Positions 409 through 48,448 of a DNA stretch of 64,000 nt are shown here, one piece after another. The DNA lies in IMG/VR virus record IMGVR_UViG_3300041964_000029, positions 1,850 through 65,849 of that record; one strand, written 5' to 3'. This stretch comes from a virus. Lineage: Duplodnaviria; Caudoviricetes. The notes below the pieces were generated by a model. The model searched no databases and had not been told where the DNA came from. It worked only from the letters and a program-made list of their open reading frames with translations. Every line of letters begins with the position of its first letter. Positions within the stretch are counted from its first letter, which is position 1. Made by a program: the position numbers and the translations under genes.

Positions 409-3400
409 ATGTCTGATACAGTCTTAAAGTTTAGTACATCTGGTTTAAGAGAAACTATAGCAGATGTTAACAAATTAGCAGACTCACAAAAGCAACTTGA
501 AAAATTTCTCAAAGATGCTGCAAAAGCTTATCAGGCACAGGGTTTAAGTGTAGAAGAGGCTACGAGAAAAGCCAAAGATTATGCTGATAGTAATGGTATA
601 ACAGCAAAATCTTTTCAGCAATTAACAGCCGAACAAAAAAAGGCTGTAGAAGCTGCAAAACAACAGACACAAGCACAAAAAGAATTAGAAGCAGCTAAAA
701 AAGCAACACAGATACAATCTGAAAAAGAATTTGCAACAAATTCTAAGTTAAGCCAGCAAAAAGTTAAAGAGTCTTTAATTGCTCAAAGTCAAGCACAAAA
801 GGAGTTAACAGCATCTCAGAAGGCTCAACAGGTAGAAGCTGAGAAGATTTTTCAGACTAACGCCAAGCTGTCTGCTCAGAAGCTAAAGGAAGAGATAGCA
901 GCACAGGCACAGGCAGAGAAAGATCTAGCTGCTGCTCAGAAGGTTCAACAGGTAGAAGCTGAGAAGATTTTTCAGACTAACGCCAAGCTGTCTGCTCAGA
1001 AGCTAAAGGAAGAGATAGCAGCACAGGCACAGGCAGAGAAAGATCTAGCTGCTGCTCAGAAGGTTCAACAGGTAGAAGCTGAGAAGATTTTTCAGACTAA
1101 CGCCAAGCTGTCTGCTCAGAAGCTAAAGGAAGAGATAGCAGCACAGGCACAGGCAGAGAAAGATCTAGCTGCTGCTCAGAAGGTTCAACAGGTAGAAGCT
1201 GAGAAGATTTTTCAGACTAACGCCAAGCTGTCTGCTCAGAAGCTAAAGGAAGAGATAGCAGCACAGGCACAGGCAGAGAAAGATCTAGCTGCTGCTCAGA
1301 AGGTTCAACAGGTAGAAGCTGAGAAAATTTTTCAGACTAACGCCAAGCTGTCTGCTCAGAAGCTAAAGGAAGAGATAGCAGCACAGGCACAGGCAGAGAA
1401 AGATCTAGCTGCTGCTCAGAAGGCTCAACAGGTAGAAGCTGAGAAGATTTTTCAGACTAACGCCAAGCTGTCTGCTCAGAAGCTAAAGGAAGAGATAGCA
1501 GCACAGGCACAGGCAGAGAAAGATCTAGCTGCTGCTCAGAAGGCTCAACAGGTAGAAGCTGAGAAGATTTTTCAGACTAACGCCAAGCTGTCTGCTCAGA
1601 AGCTAAAGGAAGAGATAGCAGCACAGGCACAGGCAGAGAAAGATCTAGCTGCTGCTCAGAAGGCTCAACAGGTAGAAGCTGAGAAGATTTTTCAGACTAA
1701 CGCCAAGCTGTCTGCTCAGAAGCTAAAGGAAGAGATAGCAGCACAGGCACAGGCAGAGAAAGATCTAGCTGCTGCTCAGAAGGCTCAACAGGTAGAAGCT
1801 GAGAAGATTTTTCAGACTAACGCCAAGCTGTCTGCTCAGAAGCTAAAGGAAGAGATAGCAGCACAGGCACAGGCAGAGAAAGATCTAGCTGCTGCTCAGA
1901 AGGCTCAACAGGTAGAAGCTGAGAAGATTTTTCAGACTAACGCAAGCTGTCTGCTCAGAAGCTAAAGGAAGAGATAGCAGCACAGGCACAGGCAGAGAAA
2001 GATCTAGCTGCTGCTCAGAAGGCTCAACAGGTAGAAGCTGAGAAGATTTTTCAGACTAACGCCAAGCTGTCTGCTCAGAAGCTAAAGGAAGAGATAGCAG
2101 CACAGGCACAGGCAGAGAAAGATCTAGCTGCTGCTCAGAAGGCTCAACAGGTAGAAGCTGAGAAGATTTTTCAGACTAACGCCAAGCTGTCTGCTCAGAA
2201 GCTAAAGGAAGAGATAGCAGCACAGGCACAGGCAGAGAAAGATCTAGCTGCTGCTCAGAAGGCTCAACAGGTAGAAGCTGAGAAGATTTTCAGACTAACG
2301 CCAAGCTGTCTGCTCAGAAGCTAAAGGAAGAGATAGCAGCACAGGCACAGGCAGAGAAAGATCTAGCTGCTGCTCAGAAGGCTCAACAGGTAGAAGCTGA
2401 GAAGATTTTTCAGACTAACGCCAAGCTGTCTGCTCAGAAGCTAAAGGAAGAGATAGCAGCACAGGCACAGGCAGAGAAAGATCTAGCTGCTGCTCAGAAG
2501 GCTCAACAGGTAGAAGCTGAGAAGATTTTTCAGACTAACGCCAAGCTGTCTGCTCAGAAGCTAAAGGAAGAGATAGCAGCACAGGCACAGGCAGAGAAAG
2601 ATCTAGCTGCTGCTCAGAAGGCTCAACAGGTAGAAGCTGAGAAGATTTTTCAGACTAACGCCAAGCTGTCTGCTCAGAAGCTAAAGGAAGAGATAGCAGC
2701 ACAGGCACAGGCAGAGAAAGATCTAGCTGCTGCTCAGAAGGCTCAACAGGTAGAAGCTGAGAAGATTTTTCAGACTAACGCCAAGCTGTCTGCTCAGAAG
2801 CTAAAGGAAGAGATAGCAGCACAGGCACAGGCAGAGAAAGATCTAGCTGCTGCTCAGAAGGCTCAACAGGTAGAAGCTGAGAAGATTTTTCAGACTAACG
2901 CCAAGCTGTCTGCTCAGAAGCTAAAGGAAGAGATAGCAGCACAGGCACAGGCAGAGAAAGATCTAGCTGCTGCTCAGAAGGCTCAACAGGTAGAAGCTGA
3001 GAAGATTTTTCAGACTAACGCCAAGCTGTCTGCTCAGAAGCTAAAGGAAGAGATAGCAGCACAGGCACAGGCAGAGAAAGATCTAGCTGCTGCTCAGAAG
3101 GCTCAACAGGTAGAAGCTGAGAAGATTTTTCAGACTAACGCCAAGCTGTCTGCTCAGAAGCTAAAGGAAGAGATAGCAGCACAGGCACAGGCAGAGAAAG
3201 ATCTAGCTGCTGCTCAGAAGGCTCAACAGGTAGAAGCTGAGAAGATTTTTCAGACTAACGCCAAGCTGTCTGCTCAGAAGCTAAAGGAAGAGATAGCAGC
3301 ACAGGCACAGGCAGAGAAAGATCTAGCTGCTGCTCAGAAGGCTCAACAGGTAGAAGCTGAGAAGATTTTTCAGACTAACGCCAAGCTGTCTGCTCAGAAG

Positions 3401-6400
3401 CTAAAGGAAGAGATAGCAGCACAGGCACAGGCAGAGAAAGATCTAGCTGCTGCTCAGAAGGCTCAACAGGTAGAAGCTGAGAAGATTTTTCAGACTAACG
3501 CCAAGCTGTCTGCTCAGAAGCTAAAGGAAGAGATAGCAGCACAGGCACAGGCAGAGAAAGATCTAGCTGCTGCTCAGAAGGCTCAACAGGTAGAAGCTGA
3601 GAAGATTTTTCAGACTAACGCCAAGCTGTCTGCTCAGAAGCTAAAGGAAGAGATAGCAGCACAGGCACAGGCAGAGAAAGATCTAGCTGCTGCTCAGAAG
3701 GCTCAACAGGTAGAAGCTGAGAAGATTTTTCAGACTAACGCCAAGCTGTCTGCTCAGAAGCTAAAGGAAGAGATAGCAGCACAGGCACAGGCAGAGAAAG
3801 ATCTAGCTGCTGCTCAGAAGGCTCAACAGGTAGAAGCTGAGAAGATTTTTCAGACTAACGCCAAGCTGTCTGCTCAGAAGCTAAAGGAAGAGATAGCAGC
3901 ACAGGCACAGGCAGAGAAAGATCTAGCTGCTGCTCAGAAGGCTCAACAGGTAGAAGCTGAGAAGATTTTTCAGACTAACGCCAAGCTGTCTGCTCAGAAG
4001 CTAAAGGAAGAGATAGCAGCACAGGCACAGGCAGAGAAAGATCTAGCTGCTGCTCAGAAGGCTCAACAGGTAGAAGCTGAGAAGATTTTTCAGACTAACG
4101 CCAAGCTGTCTGCTCAGAAGCTAAAGGAAGAGATAGCAGCACAGGCACAGGCAGAGAAAGATCTAGCTGCTGCTCAGAAGGCTCAACAGGTAGAAGCTGA
4201 GAAGATTTTTCAGACTAACGCCAAGCTGTCTGCTCAGAAGCTAAAGGAAGAGATAGCAGCACAGGCACAGGCAGAGAAAGATCTAGCTGCTGCTCAGAAG
4301 GCTCAACAGGTAGAAGCTGAGAAGATTTTTCAGACTAACGCCAAGCTGTCTGCTCAGAAGCTAAAGGAAGAGATAGCAGCACAGGCACAGGCAGAGAAAG
4401 ATCTAGCTGCTGCTCAGAAGGCTCAACAGGTAGAAGCTGAGAAGATTTTTCAGACTAACGCCAAGCTGTCTGCTCAGAAGCTAAAGGAAGAGATAGCAGC
4501 ACAGGCACAGGCAGAGAAAGATCTAGCTGCTGCTCAGAAGGCTCAACAGGTAGAAGCTGAGAAGATTTTTCAGACTAACGCCAAGCTGTCTGCTCAGAAG
4601 CTAAAGGAAGAGATAGCAGCACAGGCACAGGCAGAGAAAGATCTAGCTGCTGCTCAGAAGGCTCAACAGGTAGAAGCTGAGAAGATTTTTCAGACTAACG
4701 CCAAGCTGTCTGCTCAGAAGCTAAAGGAAGAGATAGCAGCACAGGCACAGGCAGAGAAAGATCTAGCTGCTGCTCAGAAGGCTCGAACAATTGAGGCACA
4801 AAAACAGTTTGAATTGAATGCTAGATTAACGGCTCAAAAGGTTAAAGAGTCTTTAACAGCAGAAGCGCAAGCGCAAAGGGAATCAGCAAAAGCTGCGAAA
4901 GAAGCAGCCGATCAAAAACAAAAAGCTGTTAAAGCCACTAACGATTTAGCTGTAAGTTTGAAGGGTAATCAAACAGCGATAACAGCAGTTACACAAGCTT
5001 TTAAAGGTGATTCCTTAGCGGCAAATGAAGCTGTTAATACTTATAAAAAGCTTCAGAGCGCTGGTGTAGAATTAACAAACATTCAGAAACAATTATCTAC
5101 ACAGTTAAAAATTACATCCGATCAATTTGATACAATTAACAATACACCTGTTAATAAGAATTTTGTTAAAAGCGAATCTGAAAAACAGGAAGCTTTGCAG
5201 AACACAGCTATAGTTGGTACTGCTGTAGCTGGTACTATAGGAGTAGGTTTATTAAAGGGAACTAAAGATTTTATTGCTTATGAAGACGCAATAAAAAAGG
5301 TTGGTATAACGGCTGAAATATTTGGCACAGAAAAGTTAGCTAATTTTGAAAAAACTGTAACAAAATTGGGGCAAGCAACAGCTAAAACACCCCAAGAAAT
5401 TGCTAATGTTTCTATCGAATTAGTTAGAGCAGGTTTTAGTATAGAAGAAACTGCAAAAGCGCTACCATCATTAATTGATGGTTCTCTTGCGTCTGGTGCA
5501 AGTTTGAGTAGTATAGGCGATATTGCAGCAAAAGCAGTAAGGCAATTTGGCTTAACAGCTAATGATATTCCAAGAGTTATTGATGCTTTAGTTGGTGCTG
5601 CTAACGCTGGTAATGTATCTGTAGAATCATTAGGAGAATCATTAAAGTATGTAGGTGTATCTGGTAGAGAAGCTAATCAGCCTGTAGAAGATGTTATTGG
5701 TCTATTAACGCTATTAGGTGATGCTGCTTTACAAGGTGGACAAGGTGGCAGAAACTTAGACACAGCATTGACAAGGCTTAAAATCGCGTCAGCAGAAGCG
5801 AATCCGGAGGTTATGAGCCTTGTTAGAGGTAGCGCTAGAATGCGTGAAGCATTCGATTTATTAGGTGTAAGTATTAGAGATGCTGACACTAAACAATTAA
5901 AGCCACTATTGCAAACTTTACCAGTTATCAAAGCACAGCTTTCAAAGTTTGATAAAGGTGAAAGGGATATAATTCTAAAAGCTTTATTCGATACTGAAGG
6001 TGGAAGGGCTGTTGGTGCATTATTAACACGAACACAAGCTGATATTGATAAAGTAGAAAAAGCATCTAGAAATTTAGGTGTAGCTGCAAAAGCTGGTAAA
6101 GACTCTTTAAGCGGTTTAAGCGGTGCTACTGTTCAACTTGATTCCAGTTTATCAACATTATCGATCGCTACAGGTAAATTGCAATCGAGTGCATTAGAGC
6201 CTTTAGCGTTAACGGCTAAAGACTTAATTAATACTTTTTTAGCTTCACCTCCGATAGTTCAACAATTAGTATTTGGTGTCACTGTTTTAACAGGTGCTAT
6301 AGCAGCCGCGATCGCTGTTACTGCAACTTACCAGTTACTAAAAATTAGTGAAGCTGCTGCAACTGTCGCAGAAACAGCAGCAACGATTTTAAGTACAGGT

Positions 6401-8881
6401 GCTACAAAAGCAGCAACAGCAGCTAAATTCTTATTTAACACACAAATTACTTTAGCTGGTGCTAATCAATTAAAATTATCGGCTCAAACGGCTATTAGCT
6501 CAATTGCTACGCAAGTATTCACAGGTAATACTATTACGGCTACAGGTGCGCTAGGTGGGTTAAAGTTTGCTCTGTTGTCTGTTTTAGCACCTCTAGCGGT
6601 ATTAGGTGCTGGTGCTGCTGTAGTTGGCATTGTGAAGACTACAGAGGCATTACAAGAGCAAAACGATATATTAGAAGTGTTAAACGCTAGGACGGCAATA
6701 GTAAGCGATGTTGGCTTAAACGCTCAACAAAAACTAAAAGCTGCGATTGATTCGGTTAATGCATCAAGACAAAAGGGTTTAGCAATAACTGAACAGGAAA
6801 AACAAAATGCTAAAGAGTCTTTAGCAAATGCTGAAAAGGCTTTAACACTACTTAAACAACAATTAGATGATGCTCAGAAAACACCGGAAGTTAAAAATAC
6901 AGGTTTTAGAAAAGCACTTGATTTTGTAACAACAGGTGAGATAGATTCGAAAGGTAATGTAAGCGTAACCAGTTCAGCAGATGCCCAAAATAAAAATCGT
7001 GAAACAAACATCAATCTAATTAAAAGACAGATTGAAGCAATTGAAGCACAAAAAGCAACTTTAGCAAGTGCTATTGATCCAATTATTAAAGAAGGTGATG
7101 CAACCAAGAAAAATACAGAATCTAAAAAAGAATCGAAAGAGAGAATACAAGATGAAACCCAAGAAATTAAACGGAATGCTGATGCAATAAAAGCAAGTGA
7201 AACGATAAAAGAAAGAGCAAGTGAACGAGATAGATCAAGACAATTAGAAAAAGAAAAACGTGTTAGAGCTAAAACAGAAGATAAGGCGATCGATACAATT
7301 AAGGATCAGGAATCAAAAGAAACTGATGCACTAAAAGCAATACAAGAAAAAGAAATAAATGAACTAAGAAAAAGAAACGAAATAGAAATAGAAACGGCTA
7401 AAAAAGCATTTGAAAATGATGTTCTAAATCCACTTAGGAAAAATAATGATGCAGAAATTAGAGAATTAAATAAAGATTTTAATACTCAAGAAAACACGAT
7501 TAAACGATCAAATGAAGCTGTTATTCGTAATGAACAAAAATCATTTAATGATCGTGAAAGATCTGTTGCAAGAGCCTTTCAAAATGATCTAAATAATGAT
7601 CGTAAATCATTAGAACGTACACTTAACGCTGAAAAATCAGCATTAGAAAAAACATTAAATAGTGAAAAGAAAGCGTTTGATTCTACCTTAAATGGTGCTA
7701 GTAAAGCGTTTGAATCTGGTATTACTAAAGATCAAAGTAAAGTTGATCGAACACTTAAACTCGAAGATCCTGAATTAGATGCAAAAGCAAAAGCAAAATT
7801 AAAAGAAGATTTTGCAAAAGAAGATACTTTAGCACTACGACGCGAACAATTACAAGCGCCAATAGAAGCTAAAAAGATAGCTTTTGAAGAGGCTCAAAAC
7901 AAGAAAAAAGAAGAGTTTGAAGAGGCACAGAATAAGAAAAAAGAATTATTAGAAGAGGCTCAAAACAAGAAAAAAGAAGAGTTTGAAGAGGCTCAAAACA
8001 AGAAAAAAGAAGAGTTTGAAGAGGCACAGAATAAGAAAAAAGAAGAGTTTGAAGTTAATGTTATTACACCGCTTAAATTACAACAGGATGAAGCATTAGC
8101 AAATGCACGATTAAGCTTTGAAGATAAGGTTATTACACCACTTAAACTTAAGCAGCAAGAGCAAATAAATAATACTAGTTTAGCTTTTGAGGAAAAAACA
8201 CTCAACCCAATAAGGCTAAAACTTGCTGATGCAATCGCAGTTAAAAATGCAAAAAATGAGGAAGCAATTCAAAAAATCAAAGATAGATATGAGAAAACTT
8301 TAGAAGCTAGAAAAGAAAAATTTGACGATAAAGAACGCAAGTTAGATGATATTGCCCAAGATGCAGCAGAAAAAAGAAAAGAGGCATTTAACAATAAACA
8401 GCGTAACGCTGATATTGCAACGGCTGAAAGAATTGAAGCGATTAGAAATAAAACTAAAGTTGATGGAGATAAAACGCCAACTACTACACCAACACAAACC
8501 AATCGGCAAACTATACAAGGCAGAAGGTATGGAGGTAATGTTAAAGCTAATACACCTTATCAAATTTTTGATGATGGTAAATCTACACCGGAAATTTTTA
8601 TACCGGATGCCAATGGTAGTGTTTTAACACAACAGCAAGTTAGGCAGAATTTAGCAGCCTTACAACGTGTAGGACAGGCAAAATTCAATACACCTCAACA
8701 GGTACAATCAATCAATCAAAACGGTCAATTATTAGCAGAAATTCAAATGCTAAGGAATACGATTGAATCTAGATCGCCAAATATGACTGTACCTGTAACA
8801 TTCAAATCAGATGATAATGGATACAGAAGTTATGATCGAATGATTAAATTGCAGATGGCGCATCTACGATCAACTATTTAA
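409..8881 (+). CDS. tail tape measure protein (about 2824 aa once two 1-bp deletions near 1943 and 2290 are restored)
   Basis: ORFs 409-1965 and 4814-8881 join in frame if the two repeat copies lacking one base are corrected; TP901-like TMP core (TAKTPQEIANVSIELVRAGFS, NVSVESLGESLKYVG, GGQGGRNL); Ala-rich TM-like segment; coiled-coil C-terminus. Confidence 0.9.
814..4785 (+). repeat. 120-bp (40-aa) tandem repeat, about 33 near-identical copies, inside the tape-measure gene
   Basis: Unit encodes AQK(A/V)QQVEAEKIFQTNAKLSAQKLKEEIAAQAQAEKDLAA; 120-nt period visible line by line. Confidence 0.98.
7882..8053 (+). repeat. 33-bp (11-aa FEEAQNKKKEE) tandem repeat x5 in the tape-measure C-terminus
   Basis: gaagaggc(t/a)ca(a/g)aa(c/t)aagaaaaaagaa repeated. 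Confidence 0.9.
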
Positions 8882-10448: not shown

Positions 10449-12413
10449 TTAATCAGGATCAACTATATCAGCCATATTTAATGGGTATAGTTTTTTGCGT
10501 CGTTCATCCACATTATTAATAATTCTCTGAGATACTTTAGAATCCCGATCATCATTTGCAGCAGAAACAATTCTACCAGTAATTATAATATTCTCATCTT
10601 TAGCGTCTTTTGTAGATGAATGTTTTTTATCATACGCTTTTTGCAATTCCTTAATTTCTTCCATATTTGTTTCATATAATCCACCAATAAAAGATTCTGG
10701 CATAGTAGCTAAATAAAGTTTTTTAGCTTCCATCAAATCATTTACACCAATGATGTATTTTTTTTCATCAAATTTTCCATCAATCCATTGATCGATAACA
10801 AAAATTTTATTGGATTCTAAATTAGTACCAATATAAACGTCAGCAGCCATTTTATCTGCTGCAATAGTTTTTTCAATATGACCATAAGCACCAAGTAACA
10901 TTTTCCCGTGACGCAACTGAAACGGAAAATATTGGATAGCAATATTTAAGCCATTCCATTTAATTTTTTTCTGTGCCCTAGTTGCATCGTCACTTGTGAA
11001 AGAGTCTTTAATGATTCCTGTCTGTGAGGCTCTTAAACCGTTGTTTGGTGTTTCAGGTGTCAATGCACCAACTTCAGGTTGAGAAGGCATTAAAGACGCT
11101 TTAATGGGTACCCTACCAGGAATCATAAGCGGTTGTTCAGGTACAACAATAACAGATCCTAGATCGACACCCTCTTTTAAGGATTTTGCAACGTCTACAG
11201 GTGTTACAGCTTGAGTACCAATATATATTTGGGCTGTTTCAGCTTTTGTTTTTTCTACTGCTGATCTTTCACTTTCAGTTAATTGTAAAATGCTGTGATG
11301 TTCTATTTCATATTTTTCACTATCTTCAATACTTAAACCTAGTAGAAGATAATCAATAAGTTTGTATAGATTTGGATTCCAATCTGATACTTTTTTAGTA
11401 TCAACATAATCTGCCCATTGTCTTTCATCACCACGATCAACACTTTCAGAATCCGATTTAGATCCTGATAATCCAGATTTAGAGGCAGAAGAATTAAATA
11501 ATTTTGTGTAAGGTGTATCAGTCCTAGAGGCTAAAACTTTTTTAATATGTTCAGCAGCATTGATCACACCATCATAATTAGTTGTTAAGTTACTTACCTC
11601 TTCACCCATCTGCAAGAGAAGAGTTTTATGTAAGTTCCAACTATAATTCATTTGTCTAGATCTTTCTGCCAGTTGATCTCGTCCTTTTTGTGTTTTGCTT
11701 AGTTCTGTTAACTCTGCAATTTTGATCACAATTCTACTAAACTTTTCAACAGTTGAGGCGATCGCTGTATCAGTACGATCTAGATTTTTTAACGCTTCAT
11801 AGCATCTAACTAATACCGATATACCCCAATATTTATTCCTTCGCCATTGTCTTTTAGTTAATGGTTTAATACCATAAAACGGTAATATTCTAGATGCATG
11901 AATTGGTTCATCTGTAAATTTCAAACGATAATATAAAGGTTTAAGATATGTTTTAGATTGAGGATTTTTGTCTATTGAATCTACTTTTAATTCACCTGTT
12001 GAACCACCTTCTAAAATTGTGTAATAAAGTGGATCTCTAGCATATAGTTCAATCGGTTCACTTAAAGAGCCTTTAGCACCGATCAAGATGCCAGATCCGC
12101 CAACTAACCTAGCAATTTTAGAGGCATCTATAAAATGTTGAATAATGTTATTAACTCGGTCTTGTAAATATCCATTTATTTCAGCGTTAGGATATTTAAT
12201 TGTTGGTTTGTTTTGCCCCATAGATTGAGGCAATAGATCGATAACATTTGCTGCAAATGTATTTGTATCATACAAAGATTCAAAAATTTCTGTATAACGA
12301 TTGTATCCGTTTAAGCTGGCAGATTCAGGTATACCGTAAGTTTCAGATCCTAAGCTTAAACCTCTAACCATATCTAGATAGTTAGAATCATTTTGCAATC
12401 CTGTATCAGTCAT
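10449..12413 (-). CDS. portal protein (DUF1073/HI1409-like) with C-terminal inorganic-pyrophosphatase-like domain
   Basis: ARLVGGSGIL, IHASRIL, YWGISVL, DTPYTKLF motifs; tail YGHI..T..D....DVYIG...IFVIDQ...FDEKK. Confidence 0.8.
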   Translation of the reverse strand: MTDTGLQNDSNYLDMVRGLSLGSETYGIPESASLNGYNRYTEIFESLYDTNTFAANVIDLLPQSMGQNKPTIKYPNAEINGYLQDRVNNIIQHFIDASKIARLVGGSGILIGAKGSLSEPIELYARDPLYYTILEGGSTGELKVDSIDKNPQSKTYLKPLYYRLKFTDEPIHASRILPFYGIKPLTKRQWRRNKYWGISVLVRCYEALKNLDRTDTAIASTVEKFSRIVIKIAELTELSKTQKGRDQLAERSRQMNYSWNLHKTLLLQMGEEVSNLTTNYDGVINAAEHIKKVLASRTDTPYTKLFNSSASKSGLSGSKSDSESVDRGDERQWADYVDTKKVSDWNPNLYKLIDYLLLGLSIEDSEKYEIEHHSILQLTESERSAVEKTKAETAQIYIGTQAVTPVDVAKSLKEGVDLGSVIVVPEQPLMIPGRVPIKASLMPSQPEVGALTPETPNNGLRASQTGIIKDSFTSDDATRAQKKIKWNGLNIAIQYFPFQLRHGKMLLGAYGHIEKTIAADKMAADVYIGTNLESNKIFVIDQWIDGKFDEKKYIIGVNDLMEAKKLYLATMPESFIGGLYETNMEEIKELQKAYDKKHSSTKDAKDENIIITGRIVSAANDDRDSKVSQRIINNVDERRKKLYPLNMADIVDPD

Positions 12414-24165: not shown

Positions 24166-24288
24166 TGTTTTCGGCTCCGGTGTAATTTCTCTTGTCTTCA
24201 CCAAGTATAGTCTAAAGACTCTTTAATCGTCCACTGTTTTAGAAAAGAACTGTCACACACTCGCTATGTGACAGTTCACTAGTTGAGC

Positions 24289-24714: not shown

Positions 24715-24836
24715 TGTTTTTGGCTCCGGTGTTTTCTCTTGTCTTCACCAAGTATAGGTTAAAGACTCTTTAATCGTCCACTGTTTTAGAAAAGAACTGT
24801 CACACACTCGCTATATGACAGTTCAGCGATCGCCGT

Positions 24837-28651: not shown

Positions 28652-28779
28652 TGTTTTTGACTCCGGTGTAGTTTGTTTTCTCTTGTCTTCACCAAGTATA
28701 GGTTAAAGACTCTTTAATCGTCCACTGTTTTAGAAAAGAACTGTCACACACTCGCTATGTGACAGTTCAGAGGAATCAT

Positions 28780-29732: not shown

Positions 29733-29856
29733 TTTTTTGGCTCCGGTGTAGTTTGTTTTCTCTTGTCTTCACCAAGTATAGGCTAAAGACTCTTTAATTG
29801 TCCACTGTTTTAGAAAAGAACTGTCACACACTCGCTATGTGACAGTTCAGCAGCCT

Positions 29857-30462: not shown

Positions 30463-30951
30463 TCAATTTACCCCTAAAGATCTGACAAACTTAAGTATTT
30501 TAGTGATCTTCAGAGGTTCTTTATAAATGTGCAGAGTAATATAAAGTTTCAAGAAATCAAACGGATTCCTACATACACATATTTGAACCGTGCTAGTGAC
30601 AGAATCGGATGCCTGTGCCTCAGTCCAGAATCTAGGGATATGTAGCCAAGAATCATCCTGAATCCAACCCTTAAATTTCATACGGTTGTTAAAGGTTAAA
30701 ACATCGTTAATTGCTCCGACCATATTATCAAGATCTTGTTTTCTACCTAGCTTTTTAGGGTTAACCCTGAAGATATAAACCAGACAAAAAAACTTAGGGA
30801 ATTTTTGCGGATATGCGTCGATCATTTTTTTTCTGAATTTTGTTTGCCATTGTCTATAAGTCCCATCGCTCGAATGAGTCATATTACCAGAAGCGCCGAT
30901 CATGCCTCTTGGTTTAGACATTGGATCGATCGCTATTTTAATACTAATCAT
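30463..30951 (-). CDS. rusA: RusA-family Holliday junction resolvase
   Basis: P.SKPR N-terminus, QDLDNM....ND.L and IQDDS catalytic motifs. Confidence 0.8.
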   Translation of the reverse strand: MISIKIAIDPMSKPRGMIGASGNMTHSSDGTYRQWQTKFRKKMIDAYPQKFPKFFCLVYIFRVNPKKLGRKQDLDNMVGAINDVLTFNNRMKFKGWIQDDSWLHIPRFWTEAQASDSVTSTVQICVCRNPFDFLKLYITLHIYKEPLKITKILKFVRSLGVN

Positions 30952-32439: not shown

Positions 32440-32567
32440 TGTTTTTAACTCCGGTGTAGTTTGTTTTCTCTTGTCTTCACCAAGTATAGGTTAAAGACTC
32501 TTTAATCGTCCACTGTTTTAGAAAAGAACTGTCACACACTCGCTATGTGACAGTTCAGAGGAATCAT

Positions 32568-32756
32568 CTAAACAGGGGATTTTGGGACTAATACAACTGT
32601 ATCAGGTTTAAGATCTTTATGTGACATACCGGATCGACCACTAAAATATCCATCCGAATCTTTATAAAAATTCCATTCCATAGAATCTTTTAGGGTGAAT
32701 CTATCACCTGTTCTTAAATCACTGTATGTTGTCTCTTGCCATTGTTGCTGAGTCAT
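32568..32756 (-). CDS. hypothetical early protein (start revised)
   Basis: ATG after the RBS of the repeat unit. Confidence 0.6.
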   Translation of the reverse strand: MTQQQWQETTYSDLRTGDRFTLKDSMEWNFYKDSDGYFSGRSGMSHKDLKPDTVVLVPKSPV

Positions 32757-32836
32757 TTTTTTTTTGCTCCGGTGTAGTTTATTTTCGCTTGTCTTCACCA
32801 AGTATAAGTTAAAGACTCTTTAATCGTCAAGAGTAT

Positions 32837-33391
32837 TCAGAAAAATCTTTTTAAGTACTTTCTCACATGACTATCATAAATACGTTCTGAGCTAATCCTC
32901 CGTGTATTGTTAGCAAGCGTTAAAATCTCTTGATACACCTGTGTTAAAGGTAAATCATTTATACGGCTGCAACGTTCCATAACAACAGCACTATTAAGAC
33001 TCAGATTATTTTGTCTAATCTGTTCTACCAACCAATCCGGCATTGTAGATACACGGATCAACTGACCTATATAAGCGGTTGATCTTCCTGTCAATGCTAC
33101 ACAAGCTTGTATAGCTGCTGAACGTGCAAACTTTTTACTTTTGCCTGATTCCTTTGCGATGTTCAAAGCATCTTTGTAGAAGCTTGTTACCCTAGCAGAC
33201 AGAGTTAAAACGTCCTCAGAATATTTGCAGGGTGCATCAATCGTTAGGCATACTAAAACACCATCACTATCAGCATTATCAATCGCTATTGTTTGATCTG
33301 GCTGTTGCAACCATTCGTTATGATCAGAATTAAATACTGATACTTTTAGACTGATTGATCCGGATTTAGTTTGAGCAAAAAACTGTGTCAT
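32837..33391 (-). CDS. ParB-type HTH protein lacking an intact CTPase domain (paralogue of 34066-35646)
   Basis: AAIQACVALTGRSTAYIGQLIRVSTMPDWL aligns with IATQACVVLTGKSQAYVGQLIKLATMPDWL. Confidence 0.75.
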   Translation of the reverse strand: MTQFFAQTKSGSISLKVSVFNSDHNEWLQQPDQTIAIDNADSDGVLVCLTIDAPCKYSEDVLTLSARVTSFYKDALNIAKESGKSKKFARSAAIQACVALTGRSTAYIGQLIRVSTMPDWLVEQIRQNNLSLNSAVVMERCSRINDLPLTQVYQEILTLANNTRRISSERIYDSHVRKYLKRFF

Positions 33392-33396
33392 CTTAC

Positions 33397-33594
33397 TTAT
33401 GCCTCTAATCTAATAATCTGGCAGTCTTCACCATGTCTAGAAATTAAAAAATTTTTCAGATTTTCGATTAAAACAGATTTAATAGTTACATCTCTATAAC
33501 CTCTAAAACATCTGATAGATCGATACTCAGATACTATATAACCTTTTGAAACTTTTTGTATATGATATTCAGAAGAATTAATTCTAATACTCAT
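33397..33594 (-). CDS. hypothetical early protein
   Basis: Behind a repeat unit. Confidence 0.6.
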   Translation of the reverse strand: MSIRINSSEYHIQKVSKGYIVSEYRSIRCFRGYRDVTIKSVLIENLKNFLISRHGEDCQIIRLEA

Positions 33595-33711
33595 TTTTGG
33601 CTCCGGTGTTTTCTCTTGTCTTCACCAAGTATAGGCTAAAGACTCTTTAATCGTCCACTATTTTAGAAAAGAACTGTCACACACTCGCTATGTGACAGTT
33701 CAGAGGAATCA

Positions 33712-33936
33712 TTATCGAAGTTTACACATCGTAATGACGATCGCCAATTCTCTTATGCTATCAACCGAATGTTGGCGATACTTTCTAGCGTCCTCCACAT
33801 TATCAAATTTCACAAAGTTATTGCCAGCATAGCCGTAAGATGCCCAATCACCGCTAGGGTGTACTACTGATACATTACCAGTATTAGGATCGATTTTAGC
33901 AGGTGCATATTGGGTCAGAGAGTGATGAACTAACAT
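33712..33936 (-). CDS. hypothetical early protein
   Basis: Between repeat units. Confidence 0.65.
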   Translation of the reverse strand: MLVHHSLTQYAPAKIDPNTGNVSVVHPSGDWASYGYAGNNFVKFDNVEDARKYRQHSVDSIRELAIVITMCKLR

Positions 33937-34003
33937 AATTTTCGGCTCCGGTGTTTTTGCTTGTCTTCACCAAGTATAAAGCCTAAAGAGTCTTTAAGTC
34001 AAT

Positions 34004-34037
34004 AAAAAAGTGGCACACTGTTAATGTGCCACTTTTT
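34004..34037. terminator. intrinsic terminator after the ParB-like gene
   Basis: aaaaaagtggcacac-tgttaa-tgtgccactttttg hairpin with tracts on both sides. Confidence 0.8.
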
Positions 34038-34065
34038 GCTACTTTAGAGAAAACCGGATCAAATG

Positions 34066-35646
34066 TTACTCTACAGTAGCGGTAAACTCACCATCTATAG
34101 CGGTAATAACCTCATCTAGTTCTGTTAGATCTTCATCGTCCAGACTTTCAGAATCATCGTCTACACCGTCCAGTTCACCTTCCAGATCTTCAAGTTCATC
34201 GTCCGTTACTTCAGAAACTTCACCATCATTCTGAATCAACCCTAAAGACTTATTTAGTCCATTAAATTGGTTGTAAACCTGTGTCAATTCTTCAGGGTTA
34301 AACGCTTTTTTCAAATCTAGGGCATCAAAAAGCGTTACGGTTGCAATCTTCAGGCTATCAAGTGATGCACCTGCTTCGGTGTCACTGATGAGGGACTCAG
34401 CAAACATTAAACCGATCATCTGACCAGCAACTTTAAGGGCAGATACAGCCCGTTTTGTGTTGCGTGTAACTTCCTCATCATCATCACCCATCGCATTAGG
34501 ATCGATTTGGGTGAAGGCAGAAACATTCAAAAGAGTCTTTAACGTTTCTGCAACAGAAGGTAAAACGCTAGCAGCCTTAGAAACGTCGATCACTTGTGCT
34601 TTAAGGGCAGAAGACAGGATCTTAGCTGTGGAGGTGTTAGTTTTTGCTAATAACTCCATATGAAGGTCGTTCACTTCCTCAACTTCAAGATCTTGGAGTG
34701 CTGTTAAAGACTCAAAGATAGAGTCCTCCGCAATTTTAGGATCTACCACTTTTCTAGGTGCAGCAGTTGAACCACCTTCACCAGATCCAGAAGATCCACC
34801 TTCTGAGCCTTCACCTGATCCACCTTCATTAGTTTCAGTTTTACCAGATCCAACACTCTTGATAAATTTATCAAGATGTTGCTTTTTGTAAATCGCTGGT
34901 GATCCTACTGCAAGCGATTCGGCACCTTGAAAAACTGACTCTAGAGGCATACCAGAGGAATCAGAGAACCGTTGCATATTGATTGCTGTATCAGCGTTCA
35001 ATCGTTTGTTTTGAACGTGTGTCAACAACCAATCAGGCATTGTTGCCAGCTTAATAAGCTGACCCACATATGCTTGTGATTTACCAGTAAGGACTACACA
35101 AGCTTGTGTAGCGATGGCACCAGCTTGTTTTTCATTTTTGCCAGAAGCTACAGCCCGTTCGAATGCATTCTGGTAGAAACCTGATACAGTCTTACACACA
35201 TCAATAATTTGATGGCGATTAGTTGTATCATTATCCGAGATTTGCAGCCTTACTAGAGTTTCGTAGGTAGGCTCAACCAATAGCCGTTTGATACTGACAG
35301 GCTGAAATGTCATACCTTTGTATTTGGTATCGTTCAACATTTCAGTGATGCAACGTACACGGCTATTACCAGCAAGGTAGAAAAGTTTGCCGTCAAACTC
35401 AAATACAGTTAAAGAGTTTGTAACACGGACAACGGGTTTTTCACCATTTTCGCCGCGAAAAATCAGATCCTCTTTTAACTGTTCAATGTCTTCTGCTGCG
35501 ATGTTAGCAACATTACCACGAACGTAGAACTGTGTAGGGCAGAATGCAGCATGATTCAAAAGTTCACTTGCTTCTACTTCGTAAGTATCAGAGTAAATTT
35601 TTTGTTCAGTCAAAAGTTGAGCAGTAGCAGGAGTAGCAGCAGTCAT
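34066..35646 (-). CDS. ParB/Spo0J-like protein (ParB N-domain, HTH, Gly/Ser linker, helical domain, acidic tail)
   Basis: DIEQLKEDL...G, FYLAGNSRVR (G.RR-like box), QISDN, TGKSQAYVGQLIKL..MP Spo0J-type HTH. Confidence 0.75.
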   Translation of the reverse strand: MTAATPATAQLLTEQKIYSDTYEVEASELLNHAAFCPTQFYVRGNVANIAAEDIEQLKEDLIFRGENGEKPVVRVTNSLTVFEFDGKLFYLAGNSRVRCITEMLNDTKYKGMTFQPVSIKRLLVEPTYETLVRLQISDNDTTNRHQIIDVCKTVSGFYQNAFERAVASGKNEKQAGAIATQACVVLTGKSQAYVGQLIKLATMPDWLLTHVQNKRLNADTAINMQRFSDSSGMPLESVFQGAESLAVGSPAIYKKQHLDKFIKSVGSGKTETNEGGSGEGSEGGSSGSGEGGSTAAPRKVVDPKIAEDSIFESLTALQDLEVEEVNDLHMELLAKTNTSTAKILSSALKAQVIDVSKAASVLPSVAETLKTLLNVSAFTQIDPNAMGDDDEEVTRNTKRAVSALKVAGQMIGLMFAESLISDTEAGASLDSLKIATVTLFDALDLKKAFNPEELTQVYNQFNGLNKSLGLIQNDGEVSEVTDDELEDLEGELDGVDDDSESLDDEDLTELDEVITAIDGEFTATVE

Positions 35647-35756
35647 TGTTTTTGTCCTTTAAGTTTGAGGTGTTTTGTTTTCTTGTCTCTTCACTTAATA
35701 TAAGTGATCTAGTTTTAGAAGTCAAGCTATTTTAGAAAATAGTTTTTGAAGACTCT

Positions 35757-36167
35757 TTAACACAGATCACCCACTTTAAGCACACGTTCAACTTGGTGTA
35801 ACTCAGCAGCCGTTATAAATGTCGATCCACCTCTCTTGGCTGCATTATAACATAATTGATAGACTTTACCAATTGGATGTTGTGAAATTTTACTAACTCT
35901 AATCATCATTAGAGCAACAGCAATATTCAAATCATCACTACTCACCTTCATAGCCAACCATAAAGGCAGATGCATTAGTTCTAACATCTGATAGACGTAC
36001 AACGAATTACAGTTGAAATGTTCAACACATTTACTAACGGCTGCTGTATCGGCATGAATGCCAGTACTACCAACACGCATATAACATTCGGAATAGTACC
36101 GATCATAAGCATCACTAACTTTTTGAGCAAAAATTAAAAGATCTGTTTTCTGTTTTGTCTCTGTCAT
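35757..36167 (-). CDS. ParB-type HTH-only paralogue
   Basis: AAVSKCVEHFNCNSLYVYQMLELMHLPLWL....L....A..M pattern. Confidence 0.6.
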   Translation of the reverse strand: MTETKQKTDLLIFAQKVSDAYDRYYSECYMRVGSTGIHADTAAVSKCVEHFNCNSLYVYQMLELMHLPLWLAMKVSSDDLNIAVALMMIRVSKISQHPIGKVYQLCYNAAKRGGSTFITAAELHQVERVLKVGDLC

Positions 36168-36289
36168 TTGTCTATGATTCCTGTGTGAAGGTGTTCATCT
36201 ATTAATATGCCACAGGTTAAGCCAAAAGTAAAGAGTCTTTAGAAAATAAATCCTAAAGACTCTTTAAGCGATCGCTTACCATAAGCGGT

Positions 36290-36706
36290 TTAATTTGTCA
36301 AGCCTCTCTTAACGATTTGAAAACTTGCCATTGTAGGATTTTTTTCGCCTCTACTTTTTGATAAATCTAAGGTGATATTAAAAACATCTCTCAACACAGC
36401 ATCCTTAGAATCTGCATAACGTATCATATCTAATGCTAATGTTGGATGGATTACACAGGATTGAATTTCTTTTACAATCCAATATGGCATATCTAAAATT
36501 TTTAACGCTAATCCAACTTCAAACTGTGAAATATTGAAAGTTGCTGCACAGTGTTTAGAAGCTGTCAGTGTAGCGTGTTTATTAGCACTTAGACCAGATT
36601 TACCAGACTCTAACAATTCATCAAAAGTTTTAGCGTATGTATGACTATACGCTTGATAAATTTCTTCAGCTTGATCAAGTAGATTACTAATTGTTGTGCT
36701 GTTCAT
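36290..36706 (-). CDS. ParB-type HTH-only paralogue (start revised)
   Basis: ESGKS...A...A..HCAATFNISQFEVGLALKILDMPYWI pattern. Confidence 0.6.
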   Translation of the reverse strand: MNSTTISNLLDQAEEIYQAYSHTYAKTFDELLESGKSGLSANKHATLTASKHCAATFNISQFEVGLALKILDMPYWIVKEIQSCVIHPTLALDMIRYADSKDAVLRDVFNITLDLSKSRGEKNPTMASFQIVKRGLTN

Positions 36707-36777
36707 TTGTTGTTTTTTCCAGTGTGGTTTTTGTCTTGTCTTCACCAAGCATAGCTTAAAGGCTCTTTAGCGTCAAG

Positions 36778-37203
36778 CTACATACAATTTTCTATATCCT
36801 GATCAGTCATGCTCAGATACTTGGAAACTAATTCTAATCTAGAATCAAATTTACCAATATTGTAACAATTCCATTGCCATTTATTACCCACAGTTTTATT
36901 AATACTGTGCATTAATATTGTCTCTTTACCTTCATTATCGCTCATAACAGCATCAAATAATATTGGTGTAGTGCCATTATACATTGACGGACGAAAATAA
37001 ATTTTTAATTCATCCACAACTATTGGTTTTTTCTCAGATCTTATGATTGTCTGCTTTTTAACTTTTGCTTTTATACCTCTCTTTTCTCTGTTCAACTGTT
37101 GATAAATTTTTTGTGGATCAATTTTGAGTTTGGCTGCAATATCTTTAACCGTCCCTATTTCACCAGCATATTCAACTATTTTACCTTGTCCTAACAACGG
37201 CAT
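36778..37203 (-). CDS. hypothetical protein with N-terminal HTH
   Basis: TVKDIAAKLKIDPQKIYQQL. Confidence 0.6.
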   Translation of the reverse strand: MPLLGQGKIVEYAGEIGTVKDIAAKLKIDPQKIYQQLNREKRGIKAKVKKQTIIRSEKKPIVVDELKIYFRPSMYNGTTPILFDAVMSDNEGKETILMHSINKTVGNKWQWNCYNIGKFDSRLELVSKYLSMTDQDIENCM

Positions 37204-37277
37204 AATTTTCTCCGGTTTGTTTTGCTCTTGTCTTCACCAATGCTAGCTTAAAGGCTCTTTAGCGTCAAGCTATCCTC

Positions 37278-37481
37278 TTAATGTTTTGTGTATAACCAAT
37301 CTAGTTTTGGGTTAGCTCTAAGAAAGTTTTCTTTTGTAAAAATAATGTTACCATGTCTATTAACAATTATATCCGGTTTGTGTCCAGCGATCGCAAGAGT
37401 ATTAAAAATTTCTATAGCATTATTACGATTATCCGCTAAAGATAAAACAGATAAATGATTCATAATCTTAAATTTTGCCAT
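37278..37481 (-). CDS. hypothetical early protein
   Basis: AGGAG RBS behind a promoter-only unit. Confidence 0.6.
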   Translation of the reverse strand: MAKFKIMNHLSVLSLADNRNNAIEIFNTLAIAGHKPDIIVNRHGNIIFTKENFLRANPKLDWLYTKH

Positions 37482-37545
37482 TTGTCTATTCTCCTGTATG
37501 GTGTAGTTTTACCAAGCATAGCTTAAAGGCTCTTTAATCGTCAAG

Positions 37546-42450: not shown

Positions 42451-42791
42451 AGTACAGGGTCAGTAGTACAGTACAGGGATAATTGACCCTGTACTGATTT
42501 GTAGAAGCGTTACGCTGTCTACATTTTAGCCGTTTAATGATGGTAGTACAGTACAAGCACAGGGGTATATTTGGCAATCTGCCTATAGAGATTTTTTACT
42601 ACTCATACCCTTAACGATAATATTGTCGTTAAAAGTCCTCCATCACATTGGTATATATAGAGAAGTTCAAAAAAGACCCTGTACCTGTACTGTACTACCA
42701 CACACAACACACCAGGAATCACTACACAGCAACCGTTCTACAAATCAGTACAGGGTCAATTATCCCTGTACTGTACTACTGACCCTGTACT
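42451..42791. repeat. nested inverted repeats, candidate replication origin
   Basis: Perfect 56-bp IR (42451-42506/42736-42791), 15-bp IR (42541-42555/42686-42700), central hairpin 42611-42632; GTACAG iterons. Confidence 0.85.
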
Positions 42792-47626: not shown

Positions 47627-48448
47627 ATGCAATCGTTTCTAATCTGGATTGGTAATAAAAGACGCATTTTGCCAGCTATTATTGAACATCTACCAACAAC
47701 CATTAATAATTATTACGAACCTTTTTTAGGATCTGGTGAAGTCTTTTTTGGTCTTGCTGCTGAGAAACTGATCGATACTTCTAAAAGTGTTTTATCAGAT
47801 ACTCAAATTGGTATCTATGCCACTATGGAAGCTGTTAGGTCAAAATTACCGTTAACAATACAGTTACTAACAGAGCATGAATTAAACCATAGTAAAGAAT
47901 ACTTTAATGATTTGAAAGTTAAAGTATTTTCAACTATTCCAGAAGTAGCCGCACAGTTTATTTATCTATCTAGAGCAGGTTTTTCGGGTATATACCGCGA
48001 AAACTCTAACAGTCTATACAATGTGACAATGAGGAAAAATGAGCAGCCTAGATGGGCTGAAAGGGTGTATATGTATGGCGCATCCGGATATCTCAGTCGA
48101 GCTAAGGTGTTATGTAGAGACTTCAGAGTTATTCTTGATGAGGATAATGGATGGCAAAAAGATGATTTTATTTATTGTGATCCACCTTATCATTCTTGGT
48201 TTGAAAAGAAAGAGCGATCAGTTTATAACCATAGGGTTTTTAATCTAAATGATCAGATTCATTTATTAGCAATGCTCAGACGTTTAGATAAACGCGGTGT
48301 TAAATGGATGATTTCTAATTCTATGAGTACGGAAACATTATTACTTTATAAGGACTACAACATTAAAAAAATCCCAATCACTTATAAGGTGACTCAGCAA
48401 CAAAAAAAAGGAAACAAAACAGAAGAATTGATCGTAACCAATTACTAA
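47627..48448 (+). CDS. dam: Dam-like (D12 class) DNA adenine methyltransferase
   Basis: WIGNK, YYEPFLGSG, YCDPPY, MISNS, ELIVTNY. Confidence 0.9.
   Translation: MQSFLIWIGNKRRILPAIIEHLPTTINNYYEPFLGSGEVFFGLAAEKLIDTSKSVLSDTQIGIYATMEAVRSKLPLTIQLLTEHELNHSKEYFNDLKVKVFSTIPEVAAQFIYLSRAGFSGIYRENSNSLYNVTMRKNEQPRWAERVYMYGASGYLSRAKVLCRDFRVILDEDNGWQKDDFIYCDPPYHSWFEKKERSVYNHRVFNLNDQIHLLAMLRRLDKRGVKWMISNSMSTETLLLYKDYNIKKIPITYKVTQQQKKGNKTEELIVTNY

Follow-up and report, generated by a model that had tools for sequence, protein, structure and literature searches.

The minus strand of a cyanophage genome carries, between positions 32837 and 36706 of the stretch studied here, four open reading frames (ORFs) that raise the question of why a phage would hold one ParB-like protein beside three further copies of its DNA-binding domain, and of what sequence such proteins might read. 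The stretch, hereafter the window, covers 64,000 bases of an IMG/VR virus record (IMGVR_UViG_3300041964_000029) that is 65,849 bases long and estimated to be 87% complete. We read the record as that of a cyanophage, and the window as most of its 65.8-kb genome, from two features of the sequences: the HIP1 octamer GCGATCGC, a marker of cyanobacteria, occurs at 17 sites in the window (e.g. 36268-36275) against 0.2 expected, and the cultured-phage relatives of the full-length protein infect only Nostoc, Anabaena or Dolichospermum. Here we propose that this protein, P0002, is by its predicted structure a very divergent member of the ParB/KorB family, that the short ones (P0001, P0003 and P0004) appear from their sequences to be duplicates of its DNA-binding domain alone, and that the four are probably a set of global early-gene regulators, which would work like KorB of plasmid RK2 rather than as a partition system.

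All four ORFs were found on the minus strand where an earlier reading, made from the letters of the window without database searches (the sequence-only reading), had placed them: P0001 (184 aa, 32837-33391), P0002 (526 aa, 34066-35646), P0003 (136 aa, 35757-36167) and P0004 (138 aa, 36290-36706). P0004 has an alternative TTG start at 36748; since this codon falls inside the -10 box of a promoter-like site (36776-36748), the ATG at 36706 is the more plausible start. The domain of about 110 aa said to be common to the four measures about 100-115 aa, and all six BLASTP pairs are significant (E 1e-6 to 1e-27). P0001 and P0002 match at E 1e-27, with 42% identity over 115 aa, P0003 and P0004 match P0002 at 8e-9 and 2e-11, and the short ORFs match one another at 6e-12 (P0003/P0004), 4e-12 (P0001/P0003) and 1e-6 (P0001/P0004). 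The four-way alignment has eleven invariant columns (Y, G, A, A, C, P, W, A, M, R, V) that agree with the skeleton proposed earlier, and it bears out the four recognition-helix strings SQAYVGQ, STAYIGQ, NSLYVYQ and SQFEVGL; the recognition helix of P0001 is close to that of P0002, and those of P0003 and P0004 diverge. A six-frame search of the whole 65.8-kb record with P0002 returned exactly four copies, namely these ORFs. The label "helix-turn-helix (HTH) only" given to the three short copies suits P0003 and P0004, which consist of the DNA-binding domain only (hhalign against the P0002 family alignment: P0003 9-126 with P0002 146-261, E 5e-6; P0004 43-110 with P0002 173-240, E 2.7e-7), and does not suit P0001, which aligns over residues 37-183 with P0002 122-265 (E 1.9e-17). 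Its residues 37-60 correspond to P0002 122-145, the last helix of the N-terminal domain (N-domain), with the family-invariant Q/N/D/H lost, and this degenerate remnant ahead of the DNA-binding domain suggests that P0001 is an N-terminal truncation of a P0002-like gene.

The two shortest copies resemble, by language-model features, stand-alone proteins of ~110-190 aa to which automatic ESM Atlas cluster names give the label "ParB HTH domain-containing"; none of these clusters is reported as a paralogue set beside a full-length ParB. All 30 named matches of P0004 fall in HTH_ParB clusters, as do 29 of the 30 of P0003, the thirtieth being an HTH_ParB/KorB cluster on which the Atlas model of P0003 superposes with a template modelling (TM) score of 0.62. 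Scores are 0.92-0.93, and the shared features (131-153 of 256) stay below the 170 typical within a family, so that we take the resemblance as a lead only. When 5.8 billion proteins with lengths of 66-242 aa were searched with a profile, only the window's own three came up, and the short DNA-binding-domain paralogues appear to be restricted to this phage. In the PDB, a profile built on the DNA-binding domain of the four paralogues matched no ParB; its best matches there, an NB-ARC protein (E 0.049) and DnaA domain IV (E 0.2), were taken as noise.

P0002 divides into five parts. A ParB/Srx-fold N-domain (residues 20-145, 35212-35589), with the motifs Y41-x-R43, G93-N94-x-R96 and Q135...N139-D140...H145, is followed by the ParB-type HTH DNA-binding domain (146-268, 34843-35211), the part common to the four paralogues, a Gly/Ser-rich linker (266-297, 34756-34851), a helical C-terminal domain (298-475, 34222-34755) and an acidic tail (476-526, 34069-34221) that ends in a short beta hairpin (...DGEFTATVE). 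The sequence-only reading had confined the N-domain to this copy, where LAGNSRVRC lies at residues 91-99, and had noticed the linker and the tail; we find the same, with 19 Gly/Ser among the 32 linker residues and, in the last 55 residues, 25 Asp/Glu and zero Lys/Arg. Scanned exhaustively by HMMER with residues 1-270 as query, 1.84 billion representatives gave 34 proteins at E up to 1e-3, which include P0002 itself and P0001; the remaining 32, among them P0006 at 56% identity, are 364-524 aa long. The family is thus small, with proteins of 364-526 aa, and its alignment has 33 sequences, P0001 and a duplicate (P0005) being left out.

The AlphaFold model built on this alignment has a predicted local distance difference test (pLDDT) above 90 for residues 20-250 and below 50 for 271-296, where the linker is modelled as disordered, and for 475-510; a run on the single sequence gave 46. 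In a Foldseek search of the PDB, the rows down to rank 32 were all ParB-family proteins, the best being the KorB-KorA-DNA complex 8qa9 (E 4e-5). With VIA-align, model residues 20-273 superpose on KorB of RK2 (8qa9_B) with Z 12.7 and a root-mean-square deviation (rmsd) of 3.4 A over 201 of 209 residues, ahead of Caulobacter ParB 6t1f (Z 10.5) and of 7nfu (Z 10.4), a further structure from the chromosomal ParB/Spo0J and Noc group. Taken alone, the N-domain (model 19-144) matches Caulobacter ParB with CTPgammaS (7bm8_A; Z 10.3, rmsd 2.2 A, 93 residues, 20% identity), PadC and sulfiredoxin being also among its matches, and the DNA-binding domain matches KorB-O (1r71_C; Z 8.6, rmsd 2.6 A, 111 of 112 residues), Noc (6y93, Z 8.8) and Spo0J-parS (4umk, Z 8.3). 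Phage proteins named Spo0J/ParB were matched by the model in a viral structure-model library. The predicted structure shows a ParB/Srx N-domain and an HTH directly after it, and this fold is common to ParB/Spo0J, Noc and P0002. We also take the family's HTH pattern "G-x-S ... L-x-x-M-P ... A-x-x-M-x-R" to parallel "G-K-S ... L-L-x-L-P ... G-H-A-R" of ParB. The sequence-only reading had staked itself on a ParB fold and on homology of the four ORFs; with the fold present over the N-domain and HTH domain of the model, and with paralogy borne out by BLASTP and hhalign, it stands on both counts, and we hold fold and paralogy with high confidence. P0002 differs from ParB/Spo0J/Noc in that no ParA was found and in its degenerate cytidine triphosphate (CTP) motif, its different helical C-terminal domain and its acidic tail.

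The phosphate motif of P0002 departs from that of canonical ParB. Residues R43, G93, Q135, N139 and H145 are invariant in the family alignment, and Y41, L61, N94, R96 and D140 nearly so. In a comparison of the family profile with the PDB, Noc was matched at E 2.9e-4 with GNtRvrA aligned on GERRWRA, and the KorB DNA-binding domain (1r71) at E 3.7e-3; the top match, a de novo designed helical protein aligned on the C-terminal helices, was taken as noise. The phosphate motif GERRxR(A) is thus represented in P0002 by G93-N94-S95-R96-V97-R98, and in the family by a consensus G-N-x-R, the Glu being Asn in at least 90% of the 33 members and the first Arg variable. For KorB itself, the available text of its paper describes the Glu of GERRxR as crucial to CTPase activity, and reports that CTP binding is lost in R117A. 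The replacement of this Glu, together with that statement, makes CTP hydrolysis by P0002, and possibly also CTP binding, doubtful as judged from the motif, and the sequence-only reading's transfer to P0002 of the behaviour of ParB CTPases, which load at palindromes and slide, is unsupported.

These departures could also be read as signs of another activity. The N-domain would then be an enzyme or nucleotide switch with a different job, such as a nuclease, an anti-defence factor dependent on nucleoside triphosphates, or a replication or packaging factor, and the short paralogues would be decoys unrelated to transcription. Y41, R43, G93, N94, R96, Q135, N139, D140 and H145 do cluster near the ParB nucleotide pocket while differing from the CTPase motifs, the lower structural matches include sulfiredoxin, the serine kinase SerK and an SspE/GmrSD-type N-domain, and a 2025 survey, in its available text, describes ParB-fold proteins as binding CTP, ATP or GTP and as often tied to phage-host conflict. 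Yet the best matches are, by a clear margin, two-domain ParB/KorB/Noc proteins of the same domain order, and it is the DNA-binding domain that was expanded, not the N-domain; we therefore consider another enzymatic role improbable.

The predicted structure further supports dimerisation of P0002 through its C-terminal domain, a helical bundle after the flexible linker. Prediction of residues 297-526 in two copies gave a median score of 0.66 (best control 0.00; one of three runs 0.19), a mark reached by 20 of 30 proteins solved as one-chain pairs and, among 23 solved as single chains, by 1. At least 42% of contacts recur between the runs, and the partner pLDDT is at least 67. At the very end of the acidic tail, an aromatic residue stands 5-7 positions from the C-terminus in about 13-14 of the 33 family members (counted by eye; P0002 512-526, P0006-P0037), as in GEFTATVE, DEYTATAE, ETFTAVVE and GNYTATVE after the acidic stretch; this motif may be a docking peptide. 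The suggestion of the sequence-only reading that the tail is autoinhibitory or recruits a partner is a reasonable hypothesis.

What the four proteins might bind is suggested by a 13-nt palindrome, TAAAGA(G/C)TCTTTA, which occurs in 55 exact copies in the window against 0.03 expected, and in 80 copies against 4.8 when up to two mismatches are allowed; G or C stands at the centre of 55 of 57 copies. Outside ORFs, which cover 82% of the window, lie 37 of the 55, where ORFs were called crudely from ATG starts only; one of the 37, copy 4843, lies in the TTG-started tape-measure ORF. The binomial p for this intergenic placement, 7e-17, was computed with 38 copies, before a recount to 37. Between 24.2 and 37.5 kb, 17 minus-strand cassettes carry the palindrome, or a variant with one or two mismatches, in the 17-18-nt spacer of a promoter-like site; on the plus strand there are none. 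Each cassette consists of a -35 box, a palindrome-centred spacer, the -10 box TATACT and a conserved leader with GGAG. In 13 cassettes the palindrome is exact, in three it is TAAAGAGCCTTTA and in one another variant. A bias of the central base (G on the coding strand) was dropped as evidence, being largely explained by duplication of the cassettes.

The asymmetric half-site variant TAAAGAGCCTTTA is itself over-represented (6 copies against 0.01 expected), at 36757-36769, 37249-37261 and 37524-37536 and also at 12063, 44587 and 57076. The cassettes that bear it precede P0004, ORF 36778-37203 and ORF 37278-37481, and these three promoters around P0004 have TATGCT or TAGCAT as their -10 box; that of P0004 is the promoter-like site TTGACG-17-TATGCT (36748-36776, minus strand). 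The form TGAAGAGTCTTTA is a further palindrome variant. Two exact palindromes 12 nt apart (36229-36266) lie between P0004 and P0003 and also score as a terminator-like hairpin. A cassette with an exact palindrome in an 18-nt spacer (33628-33657, minus strand) heads the operon of ORF 33397-33594 and P0001, and the next one (32801-32830, minus strand) lies directly downstream of the P0001 stop codon. P0002 is the exception within the cluster: its promoter, TTGACT-17-TATATT at 35725-35697 on the minus strand, has a spacer without palindrome, as noticed in the sequence-only reading, which had likewise pointed to a variant copy just upstream. This is TGAAGACTCTTTA, with one mismatch, at 35747-35759, ~28 nt upstream of the -35 box.

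Six 31-nt terminator-like hairpins on the minus strand, composed of GAACTGTCACATAGCGAGTGTGTGACAGTTC then TTTTCTAAAA, lie at 24247-24277, 24794-24824, 28738-28768, 29818-29848, 32526-32556 and 33671-33701; five are identical and one has a single change. As each lies directly upstream of a cassette, the early region can be described as repeated terminator-promoter-leader modules. Palindromes in the plus-strand arms often end 2-4 nt ahead of the next gene's ATG, and their first TAA can double as the stop codon of the preceding gene (example sites 393, 8883, 16117, 43495, 47611, 58790, 63248). From these positions it appears that the palindrome marks gene junctions beyond the early region. A scan of viral contigs for TTAAAGAGTCTTTAA gave at least 113 stretches, and among the 80 listed 79 hold a single match and one holds two that overlap, so these are apparently chance matches; a 19-mer from the promoter cassette was found in none of the viral contigs.

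Many dispersed palindromes beside a protein with a ParB fold and a predicted dimerisation domain might equally suggest a partition or genome-organising ParB, for which the palindromes would be parS-like sites in a carrier state or plasmid prophage, and whose complex the short copies would modulate; phage N15, for instance, has dispersed SopB sites. Such a role would nevertheless sit poorly with sites placed within promoter spacers and with relatives that are, by their record descriptions, lytic myophages of Nostoc/Anabaena. No ParA-type ATPase was found in the 65.8-kb record, estimated to be 87% complete (PF13614 and PF01656, 0 matches at E up to 1, both profiles ringing in 14 of 14 control genomes), nor was the ParA-binding peptide motif [LFI]G[KR]G[LFI] found in any of the 33 family members; the cognate ParA and the ParA-stimulating peptide that mark type I partition (ParABS) are thus both missing from what was searched. 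The canonical parS consensus is not enriched either (4 loose matches against 2 expected). We consider a partition role very unlikely.

A closer model is KorB of the IncP plasmid RK2, which is the best structural match for N-domain and DNA-binding domain and has the same order of domains, with a flexible linker and a C-terminal dimerisation domain after the HTH. In RK2, the small HTH proteins KorA and TrbA act with the large KorB at promoters, and small and large HTH proteins are likewise found together here. KorA and TrbA are not known to be related to KorB, whereas the small proteins of this phage are paralogues of the ParB DNA-binding domain; KorA and TrbA are paralogous to each other according to the available text of a review. 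The available text describes the KorB operator TTTAGC(G/C)GCTAAA as palindromic, 13 bp long and centred on G/C, with copies near promoters around the replicon; the phage palindrome has the same format. If the palindromes are taken as operators of P0002, this phage has operators near many promoters, as a KorB-type global repressor would. The likeness has its limits: identity between P0002 and KorB is 11-16%, the Pfam KorB and ParB_N families are unmatched, GNSRVR stands against GERRxR, and neither an IncC/ParA partner nor a ParA-binding peptide was found here. Moreover, RK2 operators lie 4-10 bp or further upstream in the available description, whereas the candidate operator of the phage lies inside the -35/-10 spacer, and the 55 sites on 64 kb belong to a lytic-type phage rather than to a plasmid.

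We infer binding of the palindrome, repression and any nucleotide switch along the following lines. P0002, made from the cluster's one promoter without a spacer operator, and its paralogues would recognise TAAAGA(G/C)TCTTTA; as the palindrome lies in the -35/-10 spacer of the early cassettes, its occupancy would exclude RNA polymerase and shut off early transcription. The P0002 dimer could also load at the ~40 other copies, at gene junctions of the plus-strand arms. The short copies, having neither N-domain nor dimerisation domain, could be simple repressors independent of any clamp, or competitors tuning the occupancy by P0002. The roles given to them in the sequence-only reading, as competitors, specificity variants or decoys, are reasonable hypotheses; P0003 and P0004, with their divergent helices, lie among the promoters that have the half-site variant. 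According to the available text of the KorB paper, clamp-defective KorB still represses operator-proximal promoters, which suggests that a DNA-binding domain alone could repress.

Relatives of P0002 offer a comparison across phages. Family members in A-1(L), A1, N1, YongM, YongM2, Elbi and Dfl-JY23 share 24-29% identity over P0002 residues ~35-264, with the invariant motifs, and some of these records are already annotated Spo0J/ParB. Among five cyanophage genomes with a family member (YongM, A-1(L), Elbi, Dfl-JY23 and N1), four carry a different 13-nt palindrome, TAGAGTnACTCTA, in 29 (YongM), 30 (A-1(L)), 34 (Elbi) and 29 (Dfl-JY23) copies, with G/C at the centre in 29 of 29 and 30 of 30 copies in YongM and A-1(L), the two in which this was counted. 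Most copies are intergenic, often immediately ahead of a TTGACA box or next to hairpins, and two copies flank the ParB-like gene of YongM; for the Spo0J/ParB-like protein of A-1(L), TAGAGTSACTCTA is a candidate site. The same four phages have the recognition-helix string KRQHHYIRNLLRV against KSQAYVGQLIKL in P0002, so that palindrome and recognition helix both change between the two phage groups. The A-1-like phages differ from this one in having a single family member without domain-only paralogues (with the DNA-binding-domain profile, YongM and Elbi each gave their one full-length gene and nothing else, and A-1(L), Dfl-JY23 and N1 gave no match up to E 1) and in the position of their palindrome, mostly upstream of the -35 box or beside terminators rather than in the spacer. 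The YongM gene downstream of the ParB-like gene is not a paralogue. Genomes of further relatives were also sought: a word-indexed protein search gave only P0002 itself, related-loci scans with P0002, P0006 and the A-1-group alignment gave nothing in viral, metagenome and genome collections, and tblastn with P0012 and P0017 gave only records among seven Nostoc/Anabaena phage records (6 and 7 of these), and with P0024 gave none.

These phages also have another short repeat (CCCGGAGTCA for YongM and A-1(L), CCCCGGAATCA for N1), which occurs in 78-90 copies, often as inverted pairs resembling terminator stems. Repeated motifs, 43 of them in A-1 and 21 in N-1, had been reported by Chenard et al. 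(2016), who proposed that they are promoters or stoperators; the short repeat may be part of these motifs.

The palindrome might also be read by a factor other than the paralogues. These would be ParB-type binders all the same, acting at a few other sites or non-specifically, and the reader of the 55 copies would be another phage protein, a host RNA polymerase or factor, or the product of ORF 36778-37203 (minus strand, 141 aa), directly upstream of P0004, which matches HTH_28 over residues 8-50 at E 7.8e-4, below the cut-off, and is by that match a further candidate DNA binder within the same cluster. Its adjacency speaks for this alternative, as do N1, which has the protein without an iterated dyad, and the reading of the A-1/N-1 motifs by Chenard et al. 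(2016) as possible promoters or stoperators, with ParB and Spo0J occurring 0 times in the available text; a plus-strand palindrome 2-4 nt before an ATG would suit an RNA-level or translation-linked role equally well. Against it, the palindrome's format is exactly that of a known ParB-family operator, the palindrome changes along with the recognition helix between phage groups, the paralogues are the only multi-copy DNA-binding family seen in the record, and a 5-6-bp A/U-rich stem would in our judgement make a weak RNA element. We regard a different reader as rather unlikely.

Several observations weigh against our proposal that P0002 and its paralogues act as KorB-like repressors at the palindrome. 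At the sequence level, support for the N-domain is thin. Pfam gave 0 families for P0002 at E up to 1, the six-frame translation of the record had 0 matches to ParB_N (PF02195) and KorB (PF08535) up to E 10, sub-threshold matches among the 33 relatives were limited to KorB (3/33), ParB_N (1/33) and HTH_ParB (PF17762; 1/33), and no ParB in the PDB was reached with a profile of the N-domain only, built from 6 sequences. P0002 likewise stays below the gathering scores of the curated Pfam families ParB_N, HTH_ParB and KorB, a single-sequence search of the PDB gave noise only, Pfam and NCBIfam held nothing relevant for any of the four proteins, and in PHROGs P0002 matches only phrog_35656, of unknown function. 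Given the degenerate GERRxR motif, a CTP clamp cycle may not exist at all, and a ParA could lie in the missing part of a record estimated to be 87% complete. The link between protein and palindrome is circumstantial: there is one abundant palindrome only for four paralogues, the other candidate DNA binder, ORF 36778-37203, adjoins the cluster, and in N1, whose family member shares 45% identity with the A-1(L) one, no iterated dyad occurs, whichever spacing from 0 to 10 is taken. The four concordant phages, being close relatives, amount to about one independent observation.

Taking both sides together, we judge the operator model, with P0002 and its paralogues as KorB-like repressors at the palindrome, about an even call. 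A bolder form of it is somewhat doubtful: P0002 would time the whole infection programme in the manner of KorB, without a partition role, its GN-x-R dimer loading at all 55 palindromes and the three paralogues serving as spacer locks, competitors or half-site variants; the motifs of A-1-like phages would be explained in the same way, and iterated palindromes of lytic phages, such as those of Cluster O, would be ParB-like loading sites. By description, the Cluster O mycobacteriophages (Corndog group) are lytic-type, with more than 30 dyad repeats spread over the genome, with a protein that has a ParB-like domain, and without parAB; their repeat is different, 17 bp with a 3-bp spacer, most sites lie away from promoters, and in the available text the authors propose no link between repeat and protein.

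ParB-like phage genes are already known. What appears to be new is the structural assignment of the P0002 family, a KorB-like operator format inside promoter spacers, the expansion into domain-only paralogues and the proposed link between family and palindrome; in the main text of open-access papers, we found no literature linking the P0002 family to iterated palindromes. ParB-family proteins are nucleotide-gated DNA clamps with uses beyond segregation, and KorB, VirB and BisD, which regulate transcription, all come from plasmids or integrative elements. Were the proposal true, the clamp principle would extend to developmental timing in a virulent-type phage with domain-only paralogues. The phage would then offer a compact natural system, with 55 identical sites and 17 within early cassettes, that could show what the N-domain contributes to the DNA-binding domain, whether a pocket that lacks the catalytic Glu can still switch, and in what way a clamp is disturbed by truncated paralogues. 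A testable answer would follow, too, to what the repeated A-1/N-1 motifs of 2016 are for, and perhaps the palindromes of other phages. If another factor reads the palindrome, an ordinary, very divergent phage ParB-like family with a lineage-specific expansion remains.

The cluster lies within a block of small minus-strand genes (~23.5-42 kb) between two arms, one of which encodes portal, head protease, major head protein and tape measure, and the other helicase, DNA polymerase and a D12-class methyltransferase. The last of these is an N6-adenine methyltransferase (47627-48448, E 2e-40), and 30463-30951 encodes a RusA-like resolvase below threshold (E 3.7e-3). In A-1-like phages, RusA, and in some also a methylase, adjoins the ParB-like gene; with RusA/methylase genes in both, the gene neighbourhood is partly common. 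Where the leftward early block diverges from the rightward arm, 28-nt inverted repeats CAGTACAGGG...CCCTGTACTG (42469-42496 and 42746-42773), 86% identical and 277 nt apart, could be a regulatory or origin element. At the left of the window, a 120-bp unit (40 codons) is repeated in tandem 33 times with 99% identity at 815-4789, in an array that stops just ahead of the tape-measure ORF 4814-8881; ORF 409-1965 begins upstream of the array and ends within it. The array could represent a giant repetitive extension of tail or tape measure, or else an artefact of assembly. Finally, ORF 32568-32801 (minus strand) is listed with a TTG start that falls on the -10 box of the cassette 32830-32801, and the ATG at 32756, after the conserved leader, is the likelier start.

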